Counted from the stretch's first letter, positions 1 to 28,916 are shown. The stretch: 39,350 nucleotides of DNA from a virus (IMGVR_UViG_2698536590_000009:1-39350), one strand, 5' to 3'. The notes: generated by a model from the sequence alone, not told the origin. A program made the numbers and translations.

Positions 1-672
1 TCATTTGCTTTCAACTGAAATTGATATGTCATCATCAAAATCCTGTTCAGGGAAAATATCCGCACCTTCAAATTGCAGAGGAGCTAAAATAATTCGCTCA
101 CTCCACGCGCTTACTCTGGCAAATCCGTCCTGATTCACCATCCCTACCGGATACGACACCTCACAGCGAATTTCTTTATTTGCCGCATCATAATAATACA
201 GAACGATATAAGTTCGGGTGCTATCTATCGGCGTGATCTCAGCTTTGCCTGAATGTAAGGTATCTGCTTGGAACATATCGAATGTACCCGGATTGTTGTG
301 AACAATCGAGCGAGTTGCCTCTCCCTTTGCATTTTTGGTTTTAGGCAATCCATCAGGACGCCCGGTATGTCCGTCACCTGAGGTAATAATCAGATTAACC
401 CCTTTGCTTGAATTAACGACCATTTCCATGCGATTGACTACTTCAGAAGACCAGCCGTTACCCTTACCAATCAGAATACGGCGAAGCGCGGCAACCATCT
501 CACTCCAAAAGCGGAATCCAGCATCCACTTTAGGGTGGAGCTTACTGGATTTGCGTCGCTCGTATAAAGCAGACATTAACGCATCGCGAATATCATTTTC
601 TGTAAAGCCCAGTTTACTAAGTACAAAATCCGAATCAATTCCTGTATGCAGAACACAATGAGGCATATTCAT
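1..672 (-). CDS. Hypothetical protein, accessory gene distal to the tail-fibre module (function unknown)
   Basis: Track ORF 1..690 (GTG start); more likely ATG at 672 preceded by GGGAGAA Shine-Dalgarno; stop TGA at 1-3; no recognisable motif. Confidence 0.45.
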   Translation of the reverse strand: MNMPHCVLHTGIDSDFVLSKLGFTENDIRDALMSALYERRKSSKLHPKVDAGFRFWSEMVAALRRILIGKGNGWSSEVVNRMEMVVNSSKGVNLIITSGDGHTGRPDGLPKTKNAKGEATRSIVHNNPGTFDMFQADTLHSGKAEITPIDSTRTYIVLYYYDAANKEIRCEVSYPVGMVNQDGFARVSAWSERIILAPLQFEGADIFPEQDFDDDISISVESK

Positions 673-694
673 GAAAGTTTCTCCCATCACTTTT

Positions 695-737
695 ACTTCT
701 TGATTTTATCATAAAATTTATGAAAAAATCAAGAAGT
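695..737. promoter_or_regulatory. 13-bp perfect inverted repeat (ACTTCTTGATTTT / AAAATCAAGAAGT, 17-bp spacer) immediately upstream of the 1..672 gene; candidate operator
   Basis: Read directly from sequence; AT-rich, not followed by a U-run on either strand so unlikely to be an intrinsic terminator. Confidence 0.3.
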
Positions 738-908
738 GACACCCTACAAGCGATTGTAGACTTTCTCTTGTTTTCTTACGTTCCTGCTCTCCAATTGCGC
801 AATTGATTTCTTCAACAATGTGAGAGTACACATCATAAACCTCCGACTGCAGCCAGCAACCGGAGCCTCATTCTTCAGATACCAGAACAACTCACTGCGA
901 CCTATTCG

Positions 909-1265
909 TTACTCAACATTAAATGCTCGTATCGCATCTAAATCCTCCAGAGTGTCTAACGCTTCTTTCTTCTCTCGCTGACGGCGATAAATCTCGTCAT
1001 TGCGTTCAACAACAGCCTGCGCCATTGCTGCTGCCAGTTCTTCCGGTTCCGGCATTGACAGCTTCACCTGCTGGTTTTCCGCATCGCCCCATACCATGGT
1101 TTTTCGCGCTGTGTCAGACTTTGATGCCATTACTGCCGGATAAAGACGAGCCATTGAGTCGGGGCCAGCATTCCAGGTGCGACCGTTCCATTCGAACGTG
1201 AACGGCTGCGCTTCCTGTTCTGTGCTCCACACCTCGATTTCCCGCTTTCTGGCATCCTTTCCCAC
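909..1265 (-). CDS. Hypothetical protein (118 codons, GTG start, no obvious SD); possibly the remnant of a longer degraded gene
   Basis: Track ORF; a second minus-strand ORF 1130..1507 in another frame overlaps it, hinting at a frameshifted ancestral gene. Confidence 0.3.
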   Translation of the reverse strand: MGKDARKREIEVWSTEQEAQPFTFEWNGRTWNAGPDSMARLYPAVMASKSDTARKTMVWGDAENQQVKLSMPEPEELAAAMAQAVVERNDEIYRRQREKKEALDTLEDLDAIRAFNVE

Positions 1266-1665
1266 GGCGATAAGTTCTGACGTGACGGTGAATGCAGGGC
1301 TGTCCAGTGGCGCTTTTGTTTTCGTCTCGTCCGTGACGGTTTTGACAGCCTTTGGCGTGGCTGCCAGTTCTTCGCTGTCGTTGTCTGTATCACTACAGAG
1401 TTGCGCCAGACCTTTTTTGTCGTGGAAGCATTGCTTCCCTTCAGATCATCAACTATCCATTGCGCCTCGTCCCTGTGCTGTTTCGCGCTCTGCTGCGCCT
1501 GCACCACAGTTTCCTGTCACCACATCGGCAACTGTGCGCATCACACCTCTGAGGTGTTTACCCGGGATTTCAGAGTTATGTGGCATCCGTACATGGGGAT
1601 GCCTGCGCCATCAATCAGTGCACCTGATATCACTACAGACATAGTTTTTCTCGCGATAAATTAAA

Positions 1666-5600: not shown

Positions 5601-5612
5601 ATTTACTCCATT

Positions 5613-5638
5613 AAAAAACCCGCTTTCGCGGGTTTTTT
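5613..5638 (-). terminator. Intrinsic terminator-like hairpin (AACCCGC-TTTC-GCGGGTT flanked by A6/T6; bidirectional) between accessory gene and baseplate J
   Basis: Seen in sequence: perfect GC-rich stem with U-run on both strands, 2 nt after stop of 5641..6801. Confidence 0.5.
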
Positions 5639-5640
5639 AC

Positions 5641-6801
5641 TTATTCAACCTCTTCTAAACTGCTCACTCTGGACCCTCGGCGGAAATTATCATCATTTTT
5701 AACATACTCATATGAATCCAGAATCAAACCAGATATGCGAAGTATATCTTCCGGATTAGTTATATGTATCCTTTTACCATCCGTATCAAGTCGAGCTCGT
5801 CTTATTTCATTCAACTGAACTTCACTAAGCGAAATAGGTAATGTTATAAATGAAGATTTTTTATCATAAAATCTTAACAGCCATCTATTAGTTTTACCAT
5901 TCAATAGTACACCAAAATATGACTCAGTATCTTTATATTCTATATTATCTTCTGTTTGTATGATTTGTTTTACCCTTTCAAATAGTTCCAATTCTTTGGC
6001 TGTGGTTATTATGTTGGGGTTTTCTTCATCAACAATGGCGTTATTAACTTGTGTATCCGTTGCATCATTTTCTTTAGTTTGCTCTACCGGTTGTGTAGAT
6101 AGCCCGGAAACCACCATTGCGCTAACAGCGCGCTCAACGGCCTGTTTAACTAATGGAGTCACGAACTCAAGAAATCTCTGATTAAGTTGTCTCTCAATAT
6201 TTGAACGACTAGCAACATATCGAACAAACTCCAGATCAACTTCACGAAGACTAGAACTGATTGTTTTAGTAAATGAATTCAAATAAACACTTTCTTCAGC
6301 CAGTGTCCGTAAAGCCTCTGGTTTGAATTTATCATAACGAAAACGAAATAATTGTGTAATATCGGAGTGAGTTAGAGAATCCATTCTTATTTTTAAAAAC
6401 GGCGTTGAATCCATTATGTTTTTTTGTTTCAAATCCGTAAAAAAACGCCATTCAACACCATTTGTAATGGCTGATATAGTAACTTCCGGTGTTGAATTAA
6501 AATATCTTGATAGCTGTGGGCAGTGATTATCAATTTGTTCTGAAAACGATTTCGCCTCAATGAACATCACAGGAACATCATGACAAAATAAAGCGTAATC
6601 AACCCGTTCATTAGCCTTAACCCCGGGGAAGTCAGCACTATACTCAGCTTTGACTTTTCTTGGATCATACGGAGTAAAACCAAGAATATCTAGTAATGGC
6701 ATAATGAGTGCTTGTTTTGTCGTTTCTTCAGTTGTACAAAACACCCCCATTTTTGCAACATGCTCTGTGTGTATTTTTAACTTATTTGCAAAATTTTCCA
6801 T
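5641..6801 (-). CDS. Restriction-endonuclease-fold protein: N-terminal type I restriction enzyme HsdR-N-like PD-(D/E)xK domain plus uncharacterised C-terminal domain; accessory (moron) gene, candidate anti-phage defence
   Basis: N-terminal motif pattern ...ALIMPLLDILGF...RVDYALF...VMFIEAKS...ITNGVEWRFF matches HsdR_N-type nuclease signature (recollection); AT-rich relative to flanking tail genes; own GGAGGAG SD (start likely ATG 6801, track start 6816), own terminator. Confidence 0.6.
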   Translation of the reverse strand: MENFANKLKIHTEHVAKMGVFCTTEETTKQALIMPLLDILGFTPYDPRKVKAEYSADFPGVKANERVDYALFCHDVPVMFIEAKSFSEQIDNHCPQLSRYFNSTPEVTISAITNGVEWRFFTDLKQKNIMDSTPFLKIRMDSLTHSDITQLFRFRYDKFKPEALRTLAEESVYLNSFTKTISSSLREVDLEFVRYVASRSNIERQLNQRFLEFVTPLVKQAVERAVSAMVVSGLSTQPVEQTKENDATDTQVNNAIVDEENPNIITTAKELELFERVKQIIQTEDNIEYKDTESYFGVLLNGKTNRWLLRFYDKKSSFITLPISLSEVQLNEIRRARLDTDGKRIHITNPEDILRISGLILDSYEYVKNDDNFRRGSRVSSLEEVE

Positions 6802-6829
6802 GCTTGTCTCCTCCATGGTAACAATATGT

Positions 6830-6860
6830 ATTTTGCAAATCCGAAATAATATATGTCAAT
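6830..6860 (-). promoter_or_regulatory. Candidate sigma70 promoter for the accessory nuclease gene (perfect -35 TTGACA at 6860..6855; weak -10 about 17-19 bp downstream)
   Basis: Sequence inspection only; -10 element poor, so low confidence. Confidence 0.25.
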
Positions 6861-6949
6861 ATGCTCCAGCTTAGAAAATTACTCGCCCCCTAAAATATCT
6901 CTCTACAGCACTCCAAACCAAGGTAAAAGTTTTATCATAAAACTGTGAT

Positions 6950-7297
6950 TCATACCGGCACCTGCGTCCGGTAACTGGTCCCATTAAAAAACACAACATC
7001 GATGTTATAGGTGGGGTTATCTGCTCCATCTACCTTTGAAATTGCCAGTGATGCAAAATACCCAGCAAACTGTTGCTGAACCATGTTCACATAGTAGTCT
7101 GGGTAAATCTGCTGCACGATGCACTGCTGTGCAGGAATACCGTAATTCGCGTAAAACGGCGACTCCCCCAATCCCAGCTTTAACGTCTGAATGAGCGTCG
7201 TCAGCCAGCCGTAGGAGAAATCACCGTTGGCGTCAGATTCTACTGCAACCCATTTTTTGTTGCCGTTCGCGTCGGTGACGCGGCCCCATGTTCTCAT
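6950..7297 (-). CDS. Baseplate wedge protein (gpW / T4 gp25-like, Mu GP46 family)
   Basis: 115 aa; LGLGESPFYANYG segment resembles the GE(R/S)P..P.(F/Y)G signature of gp25/W-family proteins; position upstream of J. Confidence 0.65.
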   Translation of the reverse strand: MRTWGRVTDANGNKKWVAVESDANGDFSYGWLTTLIQTLKLGLGESPFYANYGIPAQQCIVQQIYPDYYVNMVQQQFAGYFASLAISKVDGADNPTYNIDVVFFNGTSYRTQVPV

Positions 7298-7425: not shown

Positions 7426-7511
7426 AATCCAGTCTCCTCCGCTAAAATTAATCACGGAAGACCTCCAAACATACGTAATCATCCCTTGCGTATTCAAGGT
7501 GAGAAACAGAA

Positions 7512-7539
7512 CCCCCCGACTGGGCCAACAGTCGGGGGG
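7512..7539 (-). terminator. Strong hairpin (CCCCCCGACTG-GGCCAA-CAGTCGGGGGG) in the 283-bp gap between baseplate V-like and W-like genes; possible internal (attenuating) terminator
   Basis: 11-bp perfect GC-rich stem seen in sequence; trailing U-run on minus strand only moderate. Confidence 0.35.
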
Positions 7540-7579
7540 TTCGTTTTATGGTTAGAATTTAAAGTGAAATGAACCGGTA

Positions 7580-10234: not shown

Positions 10235-12313
10235 TTACCCCGGTATTTGTTGCATTCCGGCGAGTTGTGCCAGTATGTCGGAACCTGGTTTTTGTTGAAC
10301 GTCGAGCCTGATTACCTGAGAAGTATTATTTGGTGAATATACGTTTCCCCGGTTCATTGCCAGCGCCCGCATCACATCATCGCCACTTACTGCACGAGCG
10401 GCGTCCCCATTTTCATGGTTAATAATGCCCTGAATTAGCTTTCTCATTATCTCAAAATTAGAACCATCGATTTTCTCCTTAACACCTAATCCGGTGTACT
10501 GAGAGAGATAGCTTTTATAGGACGATGTGTTATTTCCATCAGATGAAGGGGCATAAATATCAATAATCTGATCAATCGTATTTTTGCCGCGTTTCAGGTA
10601 TAGCATTACCTGCCGATCTAAGGCAGCAATGCCTTCCAGCATCGTCGGGAAGCTGGCAAAACGGGCATTTGGCCCCGATTCCAGGGTAGCCCCTTTTTGT
10701 CCTGCGAAATTAAGATTTCCGGGATTGTTATTCCTGATCCCTCTGGATAAATATGCAGATCTGTTTACTTGATTTGAAAATCCCTGCAATCCTCCAGGCC
10801 AGACCTTACCCGGATTGTTTTTTTGCCACTCCTGCACTTCGTTAAAATAATCAAAGTTGAAACGCCCCTCCAGCCCTTTCATTTCCTCACTGGTGGTAGG
10901 TGTGTCATTTGTAGGAATAGCCAATCCAGCTACTGTTCCGGCTGTAGCCCCAAGAAGACTTCCACCAACAACACGGGCGGCAACTCCGGTCGTTGTGGCT
11001 GCCACAGCACCAACTCTCGATGGTCCAGCAAGTACTGCGGCCCCAAAAAGCCAGGGATGTTCAACCGCAAAACCAACAAACCCGCTAAGTGCCTTAACAA
11101 CCTTTGCAACATTTTCGGCAAAATTATTCAGGTCGTTATTAAAATCCGGGCCATTTACATACTTACCAAGTTTATCCAGACCTGTTTCAACATCAGTCAA
11201 AATTCTTTTAAAGTTCTCACCGTTAAGGAAATTTAGACCAGCATTCTTTACACCATTAGATATTCTAATTAGCTGTACAGAGTTACCCGACATTACCCCC
11301 TGAAATCCGCTGGTAAGTTGATCCCAGTTATTTTCTAAGTTGCTGGTAAGATTCTGATACTGGCTTGTATGTCCAGAGGTGAGCAACGAGTCATTCTGAG
11401 AAGCTCGCGATAAAAACTCTTTGTTGAGTTCAGGTATTTTGTCCTGATATTTGACTAACTGGTTAGCAATACCAAAATTTACCCATCCAAGGCCACGACC
11501 TCTGAGCATGCTCTGAGTAAGTCCAGTTCCCTCATACTCCTTTGCAAGAGCAGCAACTCTTTCTAACAATACAGGAAGATTTTCTGCTGCCCCTTTTTTA
11601 GGATTTATCCCTAATCCAATTAGCCCGTTGTAGGCAGGATGCTGAGTGTCATTTTGCGCGGCTGCCAGTGTATTGAGCAAATTACCAACACCGGAAAAAT
11701 AAGGCGAATAAGTGCTTTCTGCCGCCTTTAACTCTCCTGGCGTTGCCTGCAATTCATCAGCATTTTTCTGTTTCTCTACAACATTACGAGCCATCATGCC
11801 AAAGCCAAACGGCCCGGCAACACCCATAACCGCAAGTTTTGTCCCCCACGATACGGTGGTTTTAAACAGGTTGTTTAATCTCGAAGTCGTCGTCCGTAGC
11901 GTAGAATTGATCTGCTTGTAAGTTTTCAGCGTCTGTTTGGCGTTTTTCCCCAGCCCGCTGAGGTACTTATCAAACATCGTTTCGCCGCGACCTTTATAGT
12001 TGCTCACCAGCGAATCAGGTGTTTTCCCGCTGCCAACAAAGCGCCATTTTTCATCCCTTAAACGTCCATCAGTGGAAGCAGCCAGAACTGGCGCGGGTGA
12101 AGATGGTTTCCTGGGAGCCTGATTGGCTTCTCCGCCTGTGGTTGTCTGCCAAGAGCCACCTCCCGGACCGGTATTTGAAGGTATTTTAAGCGGCGTACCG
12201 GCAGGGCCAATCATCAGTCCGTTGCGATACTTTTCAAATATCGCCTCAAGCCGCCTGAGGTGTTCTTCATTAACATCCAGCGTCAGAACTGGCATCTGGT
12301 TACCAGCCATCAC
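10235..12313 (-). CDS. Tail tape measure protein
   Basis: 692 aa, Gly/Ala-rich hydrophobic central region, located directly after frameshifted chaperone pair. Confidence 0.65.
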   Translation of the reverse strand: MMAGNQMPVLTLDVNEEHLRRLEAIFEKYRNGLMIGPAGTPLKIPSNTGPGGGSWQTTTGGEANQAPRKPSSPAPVLAASTDGRLRDEKWRFVGSGKTPDSLVSNYKGRGETMFDKYLSGLGKNAKQTLKTYKQINSTLRTTTSRLNNLFKTTVSWGTKLAVMGVAGPFGFGMMARNVVEKQKNADELQATPGELKAAESTYSPYFSGVGNLLNTLAAAQNDTQHPAYNGLIGLGINPKKGAAENLPVLLERVAALAKEYEGTGLTQSMLRGRGLGWVNFGIANQLVKYQDKIPELNKEFLSRASQNDSLLTSGHTSQYQNLTSNLENNWDQLTSGFQGVMSGNSVQLIRISNGVKNAGLNFLNGENFKRILTDVETGLDKLGKYVNGPDFNNDLNNFAENVAKVVKALSGFVGFAVEHPWLFGAAVLAGPSRVGAVAATTTGVAARVVGGSLLGATAGTVAGLAIPTNDTPTTSEEMKGLEGRFNFDYFNEVQEWQKNNPGKVWPGGLQGFSNQVNRSAYLSRGIRNNNPGNLNFAGQKGATLESGPNARFASFPTMLEGIAALDRQVMLYLKRGKNTIDQIIDIYAPSSDGNNTSSYKSYLSQYTGLGVKEKIDGSNFEIMRKLIQGIINHENGDAARAVSGDDVMRALAMNRGNVYSPNNTSQVIRLDVQQKPGSDILAQLAGMQQIPG

Positions 12314-12620
12314 AATACTCCTGCGGGATTTTTGAATTTGAGCAGCTCACGAAACTGAGCTGCTGTTTTTACATTTAGGCCGGAATCTGCACAGATGTCT
12401 CTGAATCCGGCTCCGGCTGAGTAGTCGAGGATGTCGCTGATGACGTGTTCGCCGTCGCGCCAGAACTGGCGGCTGATTTCAATGTCGGCAATGAAGCGAT
12501 CCATTCCGTAAGATTCAATAACGAGCATTGAGTGCTCCATACTCCATTGACCACATCCATAGTCCCCTTCGCCTGCTCCGGTGAATTTATCGACGAGACG
12601 CATGTAAAAAAAATGAGCTC
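12310..12620 (-). CDS. -1 frame extension of the tail assembly chaperone (GT / E+E'-like fusion product made by programmed -1 frameshift)
   Basis: -1 frame is open from the T8 slippery run through ORF 12310..12603 and ends 3 nt before the tape measure start; arrangement conserved in tailed phages (established knowledge). Confidence 0.45.
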
Positions 12621-13004
12621 ACCCGCCACTTCATCCAAATCAATGATTTCACGCTCCAGCGCCATATCGAGAGGGATTGTGTCGTAGCCTTTACCCTCCA
12701 CTGGGTAAACAAGATTTGCCAGGCGAATGACCTCATTAACAAGTGTATTACGGACCCCTTTATCACCTTCCCAGATATTAGAATCACGCGAGATCCGCTC
12801 CAGCATCAAAAAAGCGATACGCGGACCCGCAACGACGCCAAGACCTTCTGAAAAAATGGCAGAAAAAGTTTTACTCAGAATGAAGAAATGCTCTTTAAAC
12901 ACCTCTTTGCTAATCGGCGTGGCATGGATCCAGCCATTATCCTTTTCTGTCCGGACAGGAATAATCAGGTTTAAATTTCGCGCGATTTTCATACCAGATC
13001 CCAC
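12375..13004 (-). CDS. Tail assembly chaperone (zero-frame product, lambda G / P2 E analogue)
   Basis: Located between tube and tape measure genes; contains slippery run T TTT TTT at 12613..12606 in zero frame. Confidence 0.55.
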   Translation of the reverse strand: MGSGMKIARNLNLIIPVRTEKDNGWIHATPISKEVFKEHFFILSKTFSAIFSEGLGVVAGPRIAFLMLERISRDSNIWEGDKGVRNTLVNEVIRLANLVYPVEGKGYDTIPLDMALEREIIDLDEVAGELIFFTCVSSINSPEQAKGTMDVVNGVWSTQCSLLNLTEWIASLPTLKSAASSGATANTSSATSSTTQPEPDSETSVQIPA

Positions 13005-20092: not shown

Positions 20093-20906
20093 GTTTGCCC
20101 TTCTCCGTTAAAAATTCGTCGGGTAGTTTCTGAGGGGCGTAGATCGGCAGTGCATCGCAACTGCAATAAACCTCCTCCCCAGCAGCAGTGATTTCGTCAT
20201 AAAAACCATATACGGGCTTAATCAGCCCCTGCTCCAGCGCCCACGAATTGCGGAGGAGATAAATTTTCTCGTCGCGCTCTTTGTGGTCCTGTCGGTATTT
20301 GTAGCCCGGACGCCGCCAGTTAGAATGCCAGCGCAGAGCAATCGCTCCACTCTGAACAGCCAGCAGATACTTAACGTTGCTTGCCAGCTTATGCCCCTGG
20401 TCAATTGCCACCCGGCGACTGATAAAATCCATATCCTTCACGGACTTATGAAAACCGGACTTCACTTCCCAGCGATCAATTTCGCTCACCCCGTCAGGCG
20501 GAATGGACGTAACCCACCCCTGAAAACGCTGTATGGTTTTCTCGATGGCCTGTTCGCGGTTGAGTTTTATCAGGTTGGCACTGGCGAAAATTCGCCTGTC
20601 GAGTTCCTTGCGAAACTCAGGTTTCAGTTTTTCAACAGTGACTTTTTTAGGGCCGTCAGGAGGCTGCTCCCGTAATGCCCCGCCGTCGATGACAAGACGG
20701 CTGTAGATGGCGGTGAGATGTTTTCTGGCTACGGTATCATCAGGGGTTTCTCGCTGAGCGGCTACACGGAGTTTCCGGCACCATTCGAGCAATGATTTTT
20801 CGCTATCCCACCCGTGATTTACGTAGTAGTTAACGGCATCCGTCAGAACCTCATATAGCGTCCTGATCCGTTTCTTCTTCCTCACCGCCCGGCTGGAAAT
20901 TGCCAT
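20073..20906 (-). CDS. Minor head morphogenesis protein (Mu gpF-like)
   Basis: Position immediately after portal; ATG at 20906 with AGGAG SD (track ORF extends to 21044 inside portal gene). Confidence 0.5.
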   Translation of the reverse strand: MAISSRAVRKKKRIRTLYEVLTDAVNYYVNHGWDSEKSLLEWCRKLRVAAQRETPDDTVARKHLTAIYSRLVIDGGALREQPPDGPKKVTVEKLKPEFRKELDRRIFASANLIKLNREQAIEKTIQRFQGWVTSIPPDGVSEIDRWEVKSGFHKSVKDMDFISRRVAIDQGHKLASNVKYLLAVQSGAIALRWHSNWRRPGYKYRQDHKERDEKIYLLRNSWALEQGLIKPVYGFYDEITAAGEEVYCSCDALPIYAPQKLPDEFLTEKGKREFNRA

Positions 20907-22287
20907 CAGGCGTCTCCTGCTTCGGTGGTTCATAATTCGCCAGCGCGTCCACATCAATGATGAGTGGAGCTTCGCCATAGGTTTGCGTGGCATTAACAAG
21001 GCTTGCCAGCCATTCAGTGACGGCGGCACGGTTTTCAGGATCAACCTGTGGCGACACGGCAGAGAAAAGTGCTATCGCCTGTTGAATCACTTTACTGTCG
21101 CTTTCCCGGCGTTTGTCCGGCGACTCCTCCACCAGCTCCTGCCATGTCGCGGTAAATTCACGTCGCCACTGGTAAAACGTGGTTTTATAGTCATCAGTTA
21201 TGATGTCCGGGTAATCATTTTTCAGCGACTGATAAAATTCCTCGTTCCAGGCGATGTACTGCACCAGGCGTTCGAAATAATCCATCACAGGTTCAATCTG
21301 CTGGCGTACACCATCGATATACTGGCTGATAGCTTTCGAATCCTCAGTTCCTTCACCGAAACCATTCGAGAAAGCCTCCTCCTTGATGAGAATCGCGGGA
21401 ACATCGCTACCTGATGCAATATCGGAAATAATGTTGTCGCGGGCGGCATTTAGCGCGCCATCGATGTTTTGTAAATTCAGCGAGGTAACGTCCTCATCCT
21501 TCCCGATACTAAGCACACCTTTATTTTTTGCCTCTTTAACATTTTCCCTTTTTCGTCCCGTGGCGGCAGCCATGATCCCGTCAAGTTTCGAACCATACTG
21601 CACAACTTTAGCCACCAGTACGCCTGCCTTCTGGCTGACGAGATCATTCGCCTCCATCGTATTGATATAGGATTTCAGGGAATAAAGAACGCGCTGAAAC
21701 ACGCTTCGCCCGGTGAATCCGAACGATGAACTCTGAAACTCCAGATAAATCGGTGTGCCATTGAAAATTTTCAGTGTGCGTGACGGATGCCAGTCTTTTC
21801 CGCCAATCTTCAGCTTTTTATTGGCTTCCTGGAAAAACGGGCTGTTTGGGTTCTGGTCAGTCACCATCGAACCAGAAGCGTTCAACGGGTCCCACGCGTT
21901 GATATACACATCATCTTCTGTCAGTCCGAATGTCGGAAGCGGCTCACGACATGGAACACTGTCGGTGCCCACGCCGATCGCTGCGGCACCGTAGCAACGA
22001 GACAGAAAAAACAGATTTTTAATCTTCTCGTTAACCTTCATACGTTCCCATACCTCCTGGAAACGCCGCACAACCCGCTCGTCAGGGTCTGTCTCCACGT
22101 TGTACTGACGCGGCTTACACATCGCCATAAGTATGGGTTTTTCGACAAGTTTTCCGCCCAGAGGATGGAATTGCCACAGCTGCTTACACAATTCATAGCC
22201 AATGTCGGTTCCCGGCTGAATTTCTTCAGCCTCAAGAATATGCATCAGTGCTGAACCGAGGCCGCCAGTAATCTCGATCTCTGCCAT
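20851..22287 (-). CDS. Portal protein
   Basis: About 478 aa, acidic C-terminus, directly downstream of terminase large subunit; ATG 22287 with AGGA SD. Confidence 0.7.
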   Translation of the reverse strand: MAEIEITGGLGSALMHILEAEEIQPGTDIGYELCKQLWQFHPLGGKLVEKPILMAMCKPRQYNVETDPDERVVRRFQEVWERMKVNEKIKNLFFLSRCYGAAAIGVGTDSVPCREPLPTFGLTEDDVYINAWDPLNASGSMVTDQNPNSPFFQEANKKLKIGGKDWHPSRTLKIFNGTPIYLEFQSSSFGFTGRSVFQRVLYSLKSYINTMEANDLVSQKAGVLVAKVVQYGSKLDGIMAAATGRKRENVKEAKNKGVLSIGKDEDVTSLNLQNIDGALNAARDNIISDIASGSDVPAILIKEEAFSNGFGEGTEDSKAISQYIDGVRQQIEPVMDYFERLVQYIAWNEEFYQSLKNDYPDIITDDYKTTFYQWRREFTATWQELVEESPDKRRESDSKVIQQAIALFSAVSPQVDPENRAAVTEWLASLVNATQTYGEAPLIIDVDALANYEPPKQETPDGNFQPGGEEEETDQDAI

Positions 22288-22305
22288 CAAAAATATCCTG
22301 ATTTT

Positions 22306-27127: not shown

Positions 27128-27383
27128 TTAAGGATGTATTTCCGGGCTTGGCTTAGTATATGACCAATCACAGTTTTGTTTTTGTCGATGTTTACAACAT
27201 CAGAATAATGCATTTAAAGTAGTAAAAATATTTGCTAATAATGCATTATTCCGATGGTGTAAAAAATGGCACTGGAACCGCAACGAATATCACTCATTAC
27301 AGAACAGGGGGCGCAAGGAACCATAAAAAACACCCTACATATATTATGTCAGTGCCTAACACAATCTCGCCTTAGTTACTGTT

Positions 27384-27456
<73 letters not shown>

Positions 27457-28761: not shown

Positions 28762-28838
28762 TGGTCCGCCACCGAGGACTCGAACCTCGCACAATCAACT
28801 TAGAAGGTTGATGCTCTATCCCGATGAGCTAGTGGCGG
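28762..28838 (-). tRNA. tRNA-Arg (anticodon UCU), phage-encoded (argN-like position in lambdoid late region)
   Basis: Manual cloverleaf with encoded CCA; anticodon loop CUUCUAA; rare-codon AGA/AGG decoder typical of lambdoid phage tRNA islands. Confidence 0.8.
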
Positions 28839-28840
28839 AA

Positions 28841-28916
28841 TGGTGGCCCTTGCTGGATTTGAACCAGCGACCTGGCGATTATGAGTCGCTCGCTCTCACC
28901 ACTGAGCTAAAGGGCC
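28841..28916 (-). tRNA. tRNA with CAU anticodon, closely resembling E. coli tRNA-Ile2 (ileX-type, lysidine-dependent); ileZ-like phage tRNA
   Basis: Manual cloverleaf with encoded CCA; strong resemblance to remembered ileX sequence; Met identity cannot be excluded from sequence alone. Confidence 0.8.

Follow-up and report, generated by a model that had tools for sequence, protein, structure and literature searches.

A probable RosmerTA toxin gene and its candidate operator in the attR-end cargo slot of a Rac-site prophage

The window analysed here, a stretch of 39,350 nucleotides of viral DNA, is a Rac-site prophage with a myovirus-type tail module and with recE, kilR and ydaT at its far end. 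At its near end lies a minus-strand gene (1..672) that we assign below to the RosmerTA toxins as rmrT. It encodes 223 aa when read from ATG 672 and 229 aa when the open reading frame is counted from GTG 690 (1..690), so that the frame of 223-229 aa in the original prediction is real; its stop codon is formed by positions 3-1, and the gene therefore ends at the window edge, as had also been claimed. A third in-frame start, ATG 687 (228 aa), is the one given by RefSeq in strain RM11911. We favour ATG 672, which is probably the true start and gives a protein of 223 aa, because the equivalent Met begins all 17 of the 17 aligned RmrT homologues from other genera, because a Shine-Dalgarno GGAG (681..684, minus strand; read from the sequence) stands 8 nt upstream of it, and because the RefSeq start of rmrT in PapRG-04-4 corresponds to it.

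Five complete E. coli chromosomes match positions 1 to 1700 of the window, four of them at 100% identity and one at 99.9%, which allows the neighbourhood to be followed past position 1, where the original prediction had suggested looking for a partner gene. That partner is rmrA. It was read from the identical DNA of E. coli RM11911 (locus L001; rmrA 10898-12004 and rmrT 12001-12687, both on the minus strand), where the rmrT stop codon (3-1 in window positions) and the rmrA start codon (4-2) overlap in an ATGA (1..4, minus strand). The rmrA product, named ‘helix-turn-helix domain-containing protein’ by RefSeq in RM11911, has 368 aa and two Pfam domains, HTH_3 (residues 17-72, 3.7e-10) and Peptidase_M78/IrrE (residues 161-274, 4.6e-21). 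The two genes share an orientation, a 4-bp overlap, a single upstream promoter and a downstream terminator hairpin, the last being a 15-bp stem followed by U residues 57 nt past the rmrA stop codon. The pairing is kept in 11 other loci.

On its other side, rmrT is preceded by a tail-fibre-related gene (909..1409, minus strand; Pfam DUF4376 at 6e-14, PHROG tail-fibre families and RefSeq), which is the last gene of the structural module before the cargo cassette. The tail-fibre assembly gene lies at 1666-2211. The original prediction put the unknown gene beyond this assembly gene, and while the position is right, the two are not directly adjacent: the DUF4376 gene intervenes, as does what is left of a second tail-fibre gene (102 nt). 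A terminator-like hairpin (841..865, minus strand; -18.9 kcal/mol, z=-3.0) with a weak U-tract separates the DUF4376 gene from the rmrTA promoter and probably insulates the rmrTA cassette from late-operon transcription.

The rmrTA cassette is the last before attR. About 320 bp further on is a short fragment encoding SQNQEISKKEQYNLNK. We take it to be a copy of the 5' end of ttcA, the duplication by which the right end of a Rac-type prophage can be recognised. Rac itself is integrated at ttcA (PMC4632033), and in RM11911 the chromosomal genes past the attR side are uspF, ompN and nifJ. Sibling prophages at the same chromosomal site have common baseplate and tail-fibre genes and diverge after the DUF4376 gene: the slot holds rmrTA in C7, C3 and PapRG-04-4, a YadA-like adhesin gene instead in EC11, and nothing in TUM9757. 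This variability, together with the RosmerTA toxin itself, bears out the expectation that the post-tail-fibre position would carry accessory or defence cargo. The present rmrT occurs in 8 of 5,426 complete E. coli genomes, at an identity of at least 99.5% and always in the same prophage.

Outside E. coli, the pair is found, toxin gene first, in other settings. In Yersinia it lies on AlpA-bearing satellite-like islands beside a SIR2-STAND gene, in Serratia in lambdoid prophages between the replication and antiterminator genes, and in Rouxiella with a Gabija-like gene pair on one side and a type I restriction-modification system on the other. Pairs also occur on plasmids of Sphingomonas, Vibrio, Rhodococcus and Agrobacterium; the RmrT homologue on the Vibrio plasmid is 24% identical and has no bearing on vmi480 of Vibrio mimicus, to which we come below. 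The phage collection contains two records only, both distant and from Acinetobacter.

What kind of protein does this gene encode? The original prediction recognised no family, and this holds for Pfam, PHROGs and NCBIfam, where searches with the 223/229-aa protein gave no match; nor did they reveal homology to a tail-fibre or invertase component, an identity that can be ruled out on that basis. The statement fails for PADLOC, where the protein matches RmrT model PDLC03935 (E=1.3e-59, residues 13-229, full length) and, more weakly, a second RmrT model. RosmerTA, a toxin-antitoxin pair that acts in phage defence, was reported by Millman et al. (2022; bioRxiv 10.1101/2022.05.11.491447), and the sequences of its verified representative, OLC-716, were taken from the supplementary table of that study. 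By BLASTP the window protein is 29% identical to the verified RmrT (239 aa) over 211 residues (E=4e-19), and hhalign aligns the OLC-716 toxin with the RmrT family profile at full length (probability 99.8%, E=1.8e-29). The partner is closer, RmrA being 44% identical to the verified RmrA (E=1e-106) and matching 14 PADLOC RmrA models (best PDLC03949, E=1.6e-142). It keeps the zinc motif HExxH, with HELAH here aligned to HELGH in the verified protein. A profile search of 1.84 billion representative proteins recovered 1,485 RmrT clusters at E<=0.001, or about 1,500 clusters at 50% identity, ranging from Actinomycetota to Proteobacteria; nearly all of the 150 clusters listed, of the 1,485, have lengths of 210-235 aa, and none of 129 family members matches a meaningful Pfam family. 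The number of clusters and their narrow length range indicate that RmrT is a large and uniform toxin family. As far as it can be read from sequence, the locus has every feature of RosmerTA, namely the RmrA domains, an adjacent toxin gene in the same operon and homology to a verified RmrT, and on this homology the unknown post-tail-fibre gene is the RosmerTA toxin gene rmrT.

RmrT is predicted to be soluble, as it has no hydrophobic segment (maximum 19-aa Kyte-Doolittle score 0.76). An AlphaFold2 model built with 18 close homologues reached a pLDDT of 69.6 and was replaced by a run with 129 family sequences (pLDDT 90.1, pTM 0.84). In the resulting model, helices at the N terminus are followed by a sheet of three strands (74-99) and a conserved loop of the form SGD..TG....P.TKN.KG; then come further helices and a long sheet, again three-stranded (153-195). 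Foldseek searches of the PDB and BFVD with this model returned nothing at E<=0.001, and fold comparison gave low scores and high rmsd values. By sequence, the close-homologue profile found no solved structure, and the deep RmrT profile found only BfiI, at a non-significant E=0.16. Four residues are invariant in the 129-sequence alignment (G99, G117, E171 and R193), and R64, W74, T103, G104, P110, K116, N127, R169, S173, P175 and W190 are nearly so; position 100 is D in only 71% of the sequences. PD-(D/E)xK nucleases have an alpha-beta-beta-beta-alpha-beta core with a D...(D/E)xK motif on strands 2 and 3. The canonical motif is absent from the RmrT family alignment (129 sequences), which has no ExK on the central strands. 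It is tentatively possible that RmrT has a degenerate form of the restriction-endonuclease-like fold and acts as an enzyme on nucleic acids; given the missing canonical motif and the poor fold matches, this is a lead and not a finding.

Upstream of rmrT, the original prediction had noted a 13-bp inverted repeat with a 17-bp spacer near the start of the gene. The repeat is exact: positions 695-707 read ACTTCTTGATTTT and positions 725-737 its reverse complement, and it stands some 5-23 nt from the candidate rmrT start codons. It is the outer part of a longer, near-perfect palindrome of 43 bp (695..737), with 21-nt arms that match at 20 of 21 positions around a 1-nt centre at 716, which is flanked by an inner CATAA/TTATG core. 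In windows simulated with a first-order Markov model, a perfect inverted repeat of 13 nt whose spacer is <=30 nt occurs 0.025 times per window on average, and a 43-bp palindrome with <=1 mismatch was found in none of 100. Hence chance does not explain the palindrome.

The palindrome contains the only promoter-like site in positions 1-1700 of the window, a sigma70-type promoter (703..732, minus strand) whose -35 element, TTGATT (732-727), falls in the distal arm and whose TG-extended -10 element, TGaTAAAAT (711-703), runs after an 18-nt spacer into the proximal arm. Transcription is predicted to start near 696, within the proximal arm, leaving a 5' UTR of about 23 nt. The upstream DNA of the Yersinia, Serratia and Rouxiella loci, whose toxins are 52-58% identical, cannot be aligned with the window except for the palindrome. 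In these genera the outer arms are invariant (CACTTCTTGATTT ... AAATCA[A/T]GAAGT) and CAT(A/T)A ... TTATG is retained as the inner core; Kluyvera, Atlantibacter, Pragia, Enterobacter, Enterobacillus, Pantoea and a further Yersinia locus have a like pattern. The promoter elements TTGATT and TG..AAAT are invariant in the homologous loci. For 12 loci, a set that takes in four distant plasmid loci (24-31% toxin identity) and OLC-716, we took the highest-scoring palindrome of 44-47 bp from the 160 nt that precede rmrT and compared it with a shuffle control. It lies 11-27 nt before the start codon in every one of the 12, including the verified OLC-716. Matching pairs numbered 14-20 of 22 against a shuffle mean of about 12, with p<0.005 in 11 of the 12 loci and 0.033 in the Vibrio locus.

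In type II toxin-antitoxin operons autoregulation is usual. Here, identical RmrA recognition helices (GLSSRIVIEYEK) go with identical palindrome arms, and divergent helices go with divergent arms. This covariation, the overlap with the promoter and the conservation make autorepression by RmrA the likely function of the palindrome, in line with the earlier description of the repeat as operator-like. The palindrome is thus the probable operator for the RmrA HTH, at which RmrA would occlude RNA polymerase; we infer the binding itself from these sequence patterns, and the conservation of the arms could in part come from promoter constraint alone. The arm centres are 30 bp apart, which is unusual for a simple HTH dimer, and this spacing together with the separate inner core suggests that more than a simple dimer may be involved.

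How does this locus compare with known systems? The RosmerTA of OLC-716 is likewise a toxin-first bicistronic operon with an RmrA that carries an HTH and a zinc peptidase, and its cloned ‘native promoter’ fragment likewise has a promoter-bearing palindrome, of 46 bp and 18 nt before the ATG. It differs in its toxin, which is only distantly similar (29%, as above) and has 239 rather than 223 aa, in its candidate operator sequence (ATTTTCTTGTTTTT, against CACTTCTTGATTT here), and in its genomic location, which here is the attR end of a Rac-site prophage. The pairs vmi480/vmi470 of Vibrio mimicus (PMC4671572) and E101_02645/02644 of E. coli E101 (bioRxiv 10.1101/2020.05.25.114553) also begin with a toxin that has no known domain; the antitoxin that follows has about 360 aa and combines an HTH with a zinc peptidase. 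Their carrier is a genomic island or a prophage. In both, loss of the antitoxin gene alone is lethal (PMC4671572; bioRxiv 10.1101/2020.05.25.114553), and the E101 module makes clpP essential (Rousset et al., bioRxiv 10.1101/2020.05.25.114553). Vmi480 has 198 aa, it and the E101 toxin are likened to RmrT by description only, and both modules are without a reported defence phenotype. The phage-borne RmrT(D5)/RmrA of Gordonia phage Kita shares the RosmerTA architecture and gives narrow-spectrum defence, but its RmrT is membrane-depolarising (PMC10440598), whereas the RmrT described here is predicted to be a soluble alpha/beta protein.

Related regulatory parts are found outside RosmerTA. ImmR/ImmA of ICEBs1 and CapH/CapP of CBASS, like RmrA, have an XRE-type HTH and an ImmA/IrrE M78 peptidase that work together, with the HTH expected to bind a palindrome overlapping a promoter; RmrA matches the PADLOC capP model at 1.3e-19 and the capH model at 1e-5. 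In those pairs the peptidase cleaves a separate HTH repressor, whereas in RmrA both are fused in one protein, and, unlike in either pair, the gene that RmrA is predicted to control would be that of a toxin that it also neutralises. PD-lambda-2, from an E. coli prophage, is similar to the present locus in that a toxin-like gene precedes the one for an Xre-peptidase fusion, and acts by abortive infection (Vassallo et al. 2022; PMC9519451). It differs in having three components, with a HigB-like first gene and with the peptidase fusion as the toxic part, and RmrA matches its PD-Lambda-2_B model only marginally (E=0.007). The toxicity of that Xre-peptidase means that role assignments are not uniform in the superfamily.

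In light of this evidence, we propose that positions 1-745 are very likely the promoter-proximal half of a RosmerTA anti-phage cassette, carried as attR-end cargo of a Rac-site prophage. Toxicity, neutralisation, defence and DNA binding are ascribed to this allele through its homologues. RosmerTA of OLC-716 with its native promoter protects E. coli, and a deletion of its rmrA is not transformable (bioRxiv 10.1101/2022.05.11.491447). In Tn-seq, rmrA is essential where the system is present (10.64898/2025.12.09.693261), and clpP or clpX is made essential by RosmerTA-type modules (bioRxiv 10.1101/2020.05.25.114553; 10.64898/2025.12.09.693261). The contexts of the homologous pairs are defence or mobile-element hotspots.

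One mechanism consistent with these observations is that rmrT and rmrA would be transcribed from the single sigma70 promoter inside the palindrome, and that an RmrA oligomer would bind the palindrome through its HTH and so repress the operon, while RmrA would also hold RmrT inactive, as has been shown for homologues. Phage infection would then perturb RmrA, probably through its own M78 peptidase, host ClpXP or both, the peptidase-based trigger being proposed by analogy with ImmA/ImmR and CapP/CapH (PMC10440598). Once RmrA is perturbed, RmrT would be freed and the operon derepressed, and the freed toxin may arrest or kill the cell before phage release. A more ambitious proposal is that the family has an undescribed shared design in which a 44-47-bp bipartite palindrome, its opposite arms bearing the -35 and the -10, and higher-order RmrA repression are combined with a toxin of restriction-endonuclease fold that has a non-canonical active site (E171, R193, K116 and R169) and is released via the fused peptidase and ClpXP; taken as a whole, we consider this possible but doubtful.

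Might rmrTA be purely an addiction module, stabilising the prophage by post-segregational killing and having no role in phage defence? The classic toxin-antitoxin layout, 323 bp from the attR-side ttcA fragment, would fit such a role, as would the reported essentiality of the antitoxin at RosmerTA loci (10.64898/2025.12.09.693261) and the confinement of this rmrT to one prophage in so few E. coli genomes. We nevertheless regard it as unlikely, since a homologous pair is phage-protective (bioRxiv 10.1101/2022.05.11.491447) and homologues adjoin other defence systems in islands that are not prophages; addiction and defence are, moreover, not mutually exclusive. It is less probable still that the roles are reversed, with the HTH-peptidase protein toxic and the 223-aa protein its neutraliser. 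PD-lambda-2 does provide a precedent, as its toxic Xre-peptidase fusion is rescued by the upstream gene product (PMC9519451), but in OLC-716 and vmi480/470 the lethal gene is the upstream one and the peptidase gene does not tolerate deletion on its own, and RmrA is much nearer to the OLC-716 antitoxin than to PD-Lambda-2_B, by the identity and E-value given above.

As for the palindrome, a hix/gix site spans 26 bp and is built of two imperfect half-sites, each about 13 bp long, that abut directly; a serine invertase gene lies close by, and there is a tail-fibre segment that can be inverted. The arm sequence TTCTTGA presumably resembles part of a hix half-site, and a pin invertase is frequent after tfa in Rac-type prophages, so a recombination site, whether hix/gix-like or att, deserves consideration, as does an RNA hairpin on late-operon read-through, for which the folding of the palindrome as RNA (-19.6 kcal/mol, z=-4.7) might be cited. 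A Hin/Gin/Pin invertase site can be ruled out: the arms are 17 bp apart, and no invertase gene is found at this end of the window or before attR. More generally, the interval from the tail-fibre genes to attR contains neither an invertase nor a recombinase gene, and the palindrome accompanies rmrTA into plasmids, satellite-like islands and the early regions of lambdoid prophages, so that the original concern that the repeat might belong to an att or recombination site is not borne out. Against both readings, the arms carry the -35 and -10 elements; against the hairpin, no U-tract follows the palindrome, and with a predicted transcription start inside the proximal arm the operon's own mRNA could not form it. 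Together these two readings are left with a very small probability, and the RmrA operator is the reading that we retain.

Existing defence-annotation tools would call this locus RosmerTA, and in that sense it is already known: the family is a catalogued one, and this allele of it occupies a cargo slot typical of prophages. The placing of the operon across the window edge, which bisects it, is one of two modest additions made here. What stood as a ‘hypothetical protein’ at a prophage end becomes half of a catalogued anti-phage toxin-antitoxin system, and the slot that separates the last tail-fibre gene from attR becomes a further example of a cargo swap site. A literature search on the mechanism of RosmerTA and an RmrA operator gave census-type mentions and the papers cited here only. 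The long palindromic promoter found across the clade, which we did not find described in the searchable literature, therefore provides a concrete operator hypothesis for RmrA, and its bipartite form, an inner core enclosed by outer arms that stand about 30 bp apart, would, if true, imply that RmrA represses as a higher-order oligomer.

In Yersinia and Rouxiella, homologous copies of the RosmerTA toxin-antitoxin cassette (rmrTA) are accompanied by other defence genes. At the Yersinia locus, an 838-aa SIR2-STAND protein (L002 8961-11477) adjoins the cassette, and at the Rouxiella locus the cassette has a Gabija-like OLD/UvrD pair on one side and, on the other, a type I restriction-modification system (L008 2145-5746, 8100-12681), the latter accompanied by an FRG-domain gene. 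The surroundings of rmrTA at both loci are typical defence islands.

In the window, rmrTA lies between the tail-fibre-related DUF4376 gene and attR. Among sibling prophages at the same chromosomal site, the corresponding slot holds a YadA-like adhesin gene in E. coli EC11 (L024 2785-4149) and is empty in E. coli TUM9757 (L025). Ahead of the DUF4376 gene, within 1410-1665, a second tail-fibre gene is reduced to a 102-nt N-terminal remnant (1541-1642); strains C7, PapRG-04-4, and TUM9757 have this gene intact, at 1.4-2.0 kb.

Immediately after the large terminase gene, in the expected portal gene position, is a 479-aa ORF (20851-22290, minus strand) that RefSeq names "anti-CBASS protein Acb1 family", a label that may be a naming artefact or reflect a fusion. 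The prophage also bears three tRNA genes, all on the minus strand: Gly(tcc) at 27384-27456, Arg(tct) at 28762-28838, and a CAT-anticodon tRNA at 28841-28916, which is called Met by ARAGORN but Ile by RefSeq (in the prophage of strain RM11911).

Further apparent cargo lies between baseplate genes, where an HSDR_N-domain gene and a 115-aa ORF (6950-7297) share one interval (5641-7297), both on the minus strand. Of the type I restriction enzyme domains, the 391-aa HSDR_N protein has the N-terminal HSDR_N only (Pfam 5.6e-14), and it matches phrog_4225 "endonuclease" at 4.7e-149. Other inverted repeats, perfect over 12-14 nt and separated by short spacers, are present at 7509-7543, 5612-5640, and 27203-27252; the first two are in the intergenic gaps on either side of these cargo genes and are probably terminators. 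In the TUM9757 sibling prophage, the place of the HSDR_N-domain gene and the 115-aa ORF is taken by other small genes and an Ant antirepressor. The tail module seems to contain, at this interval, a second slot in which the cargo varies.
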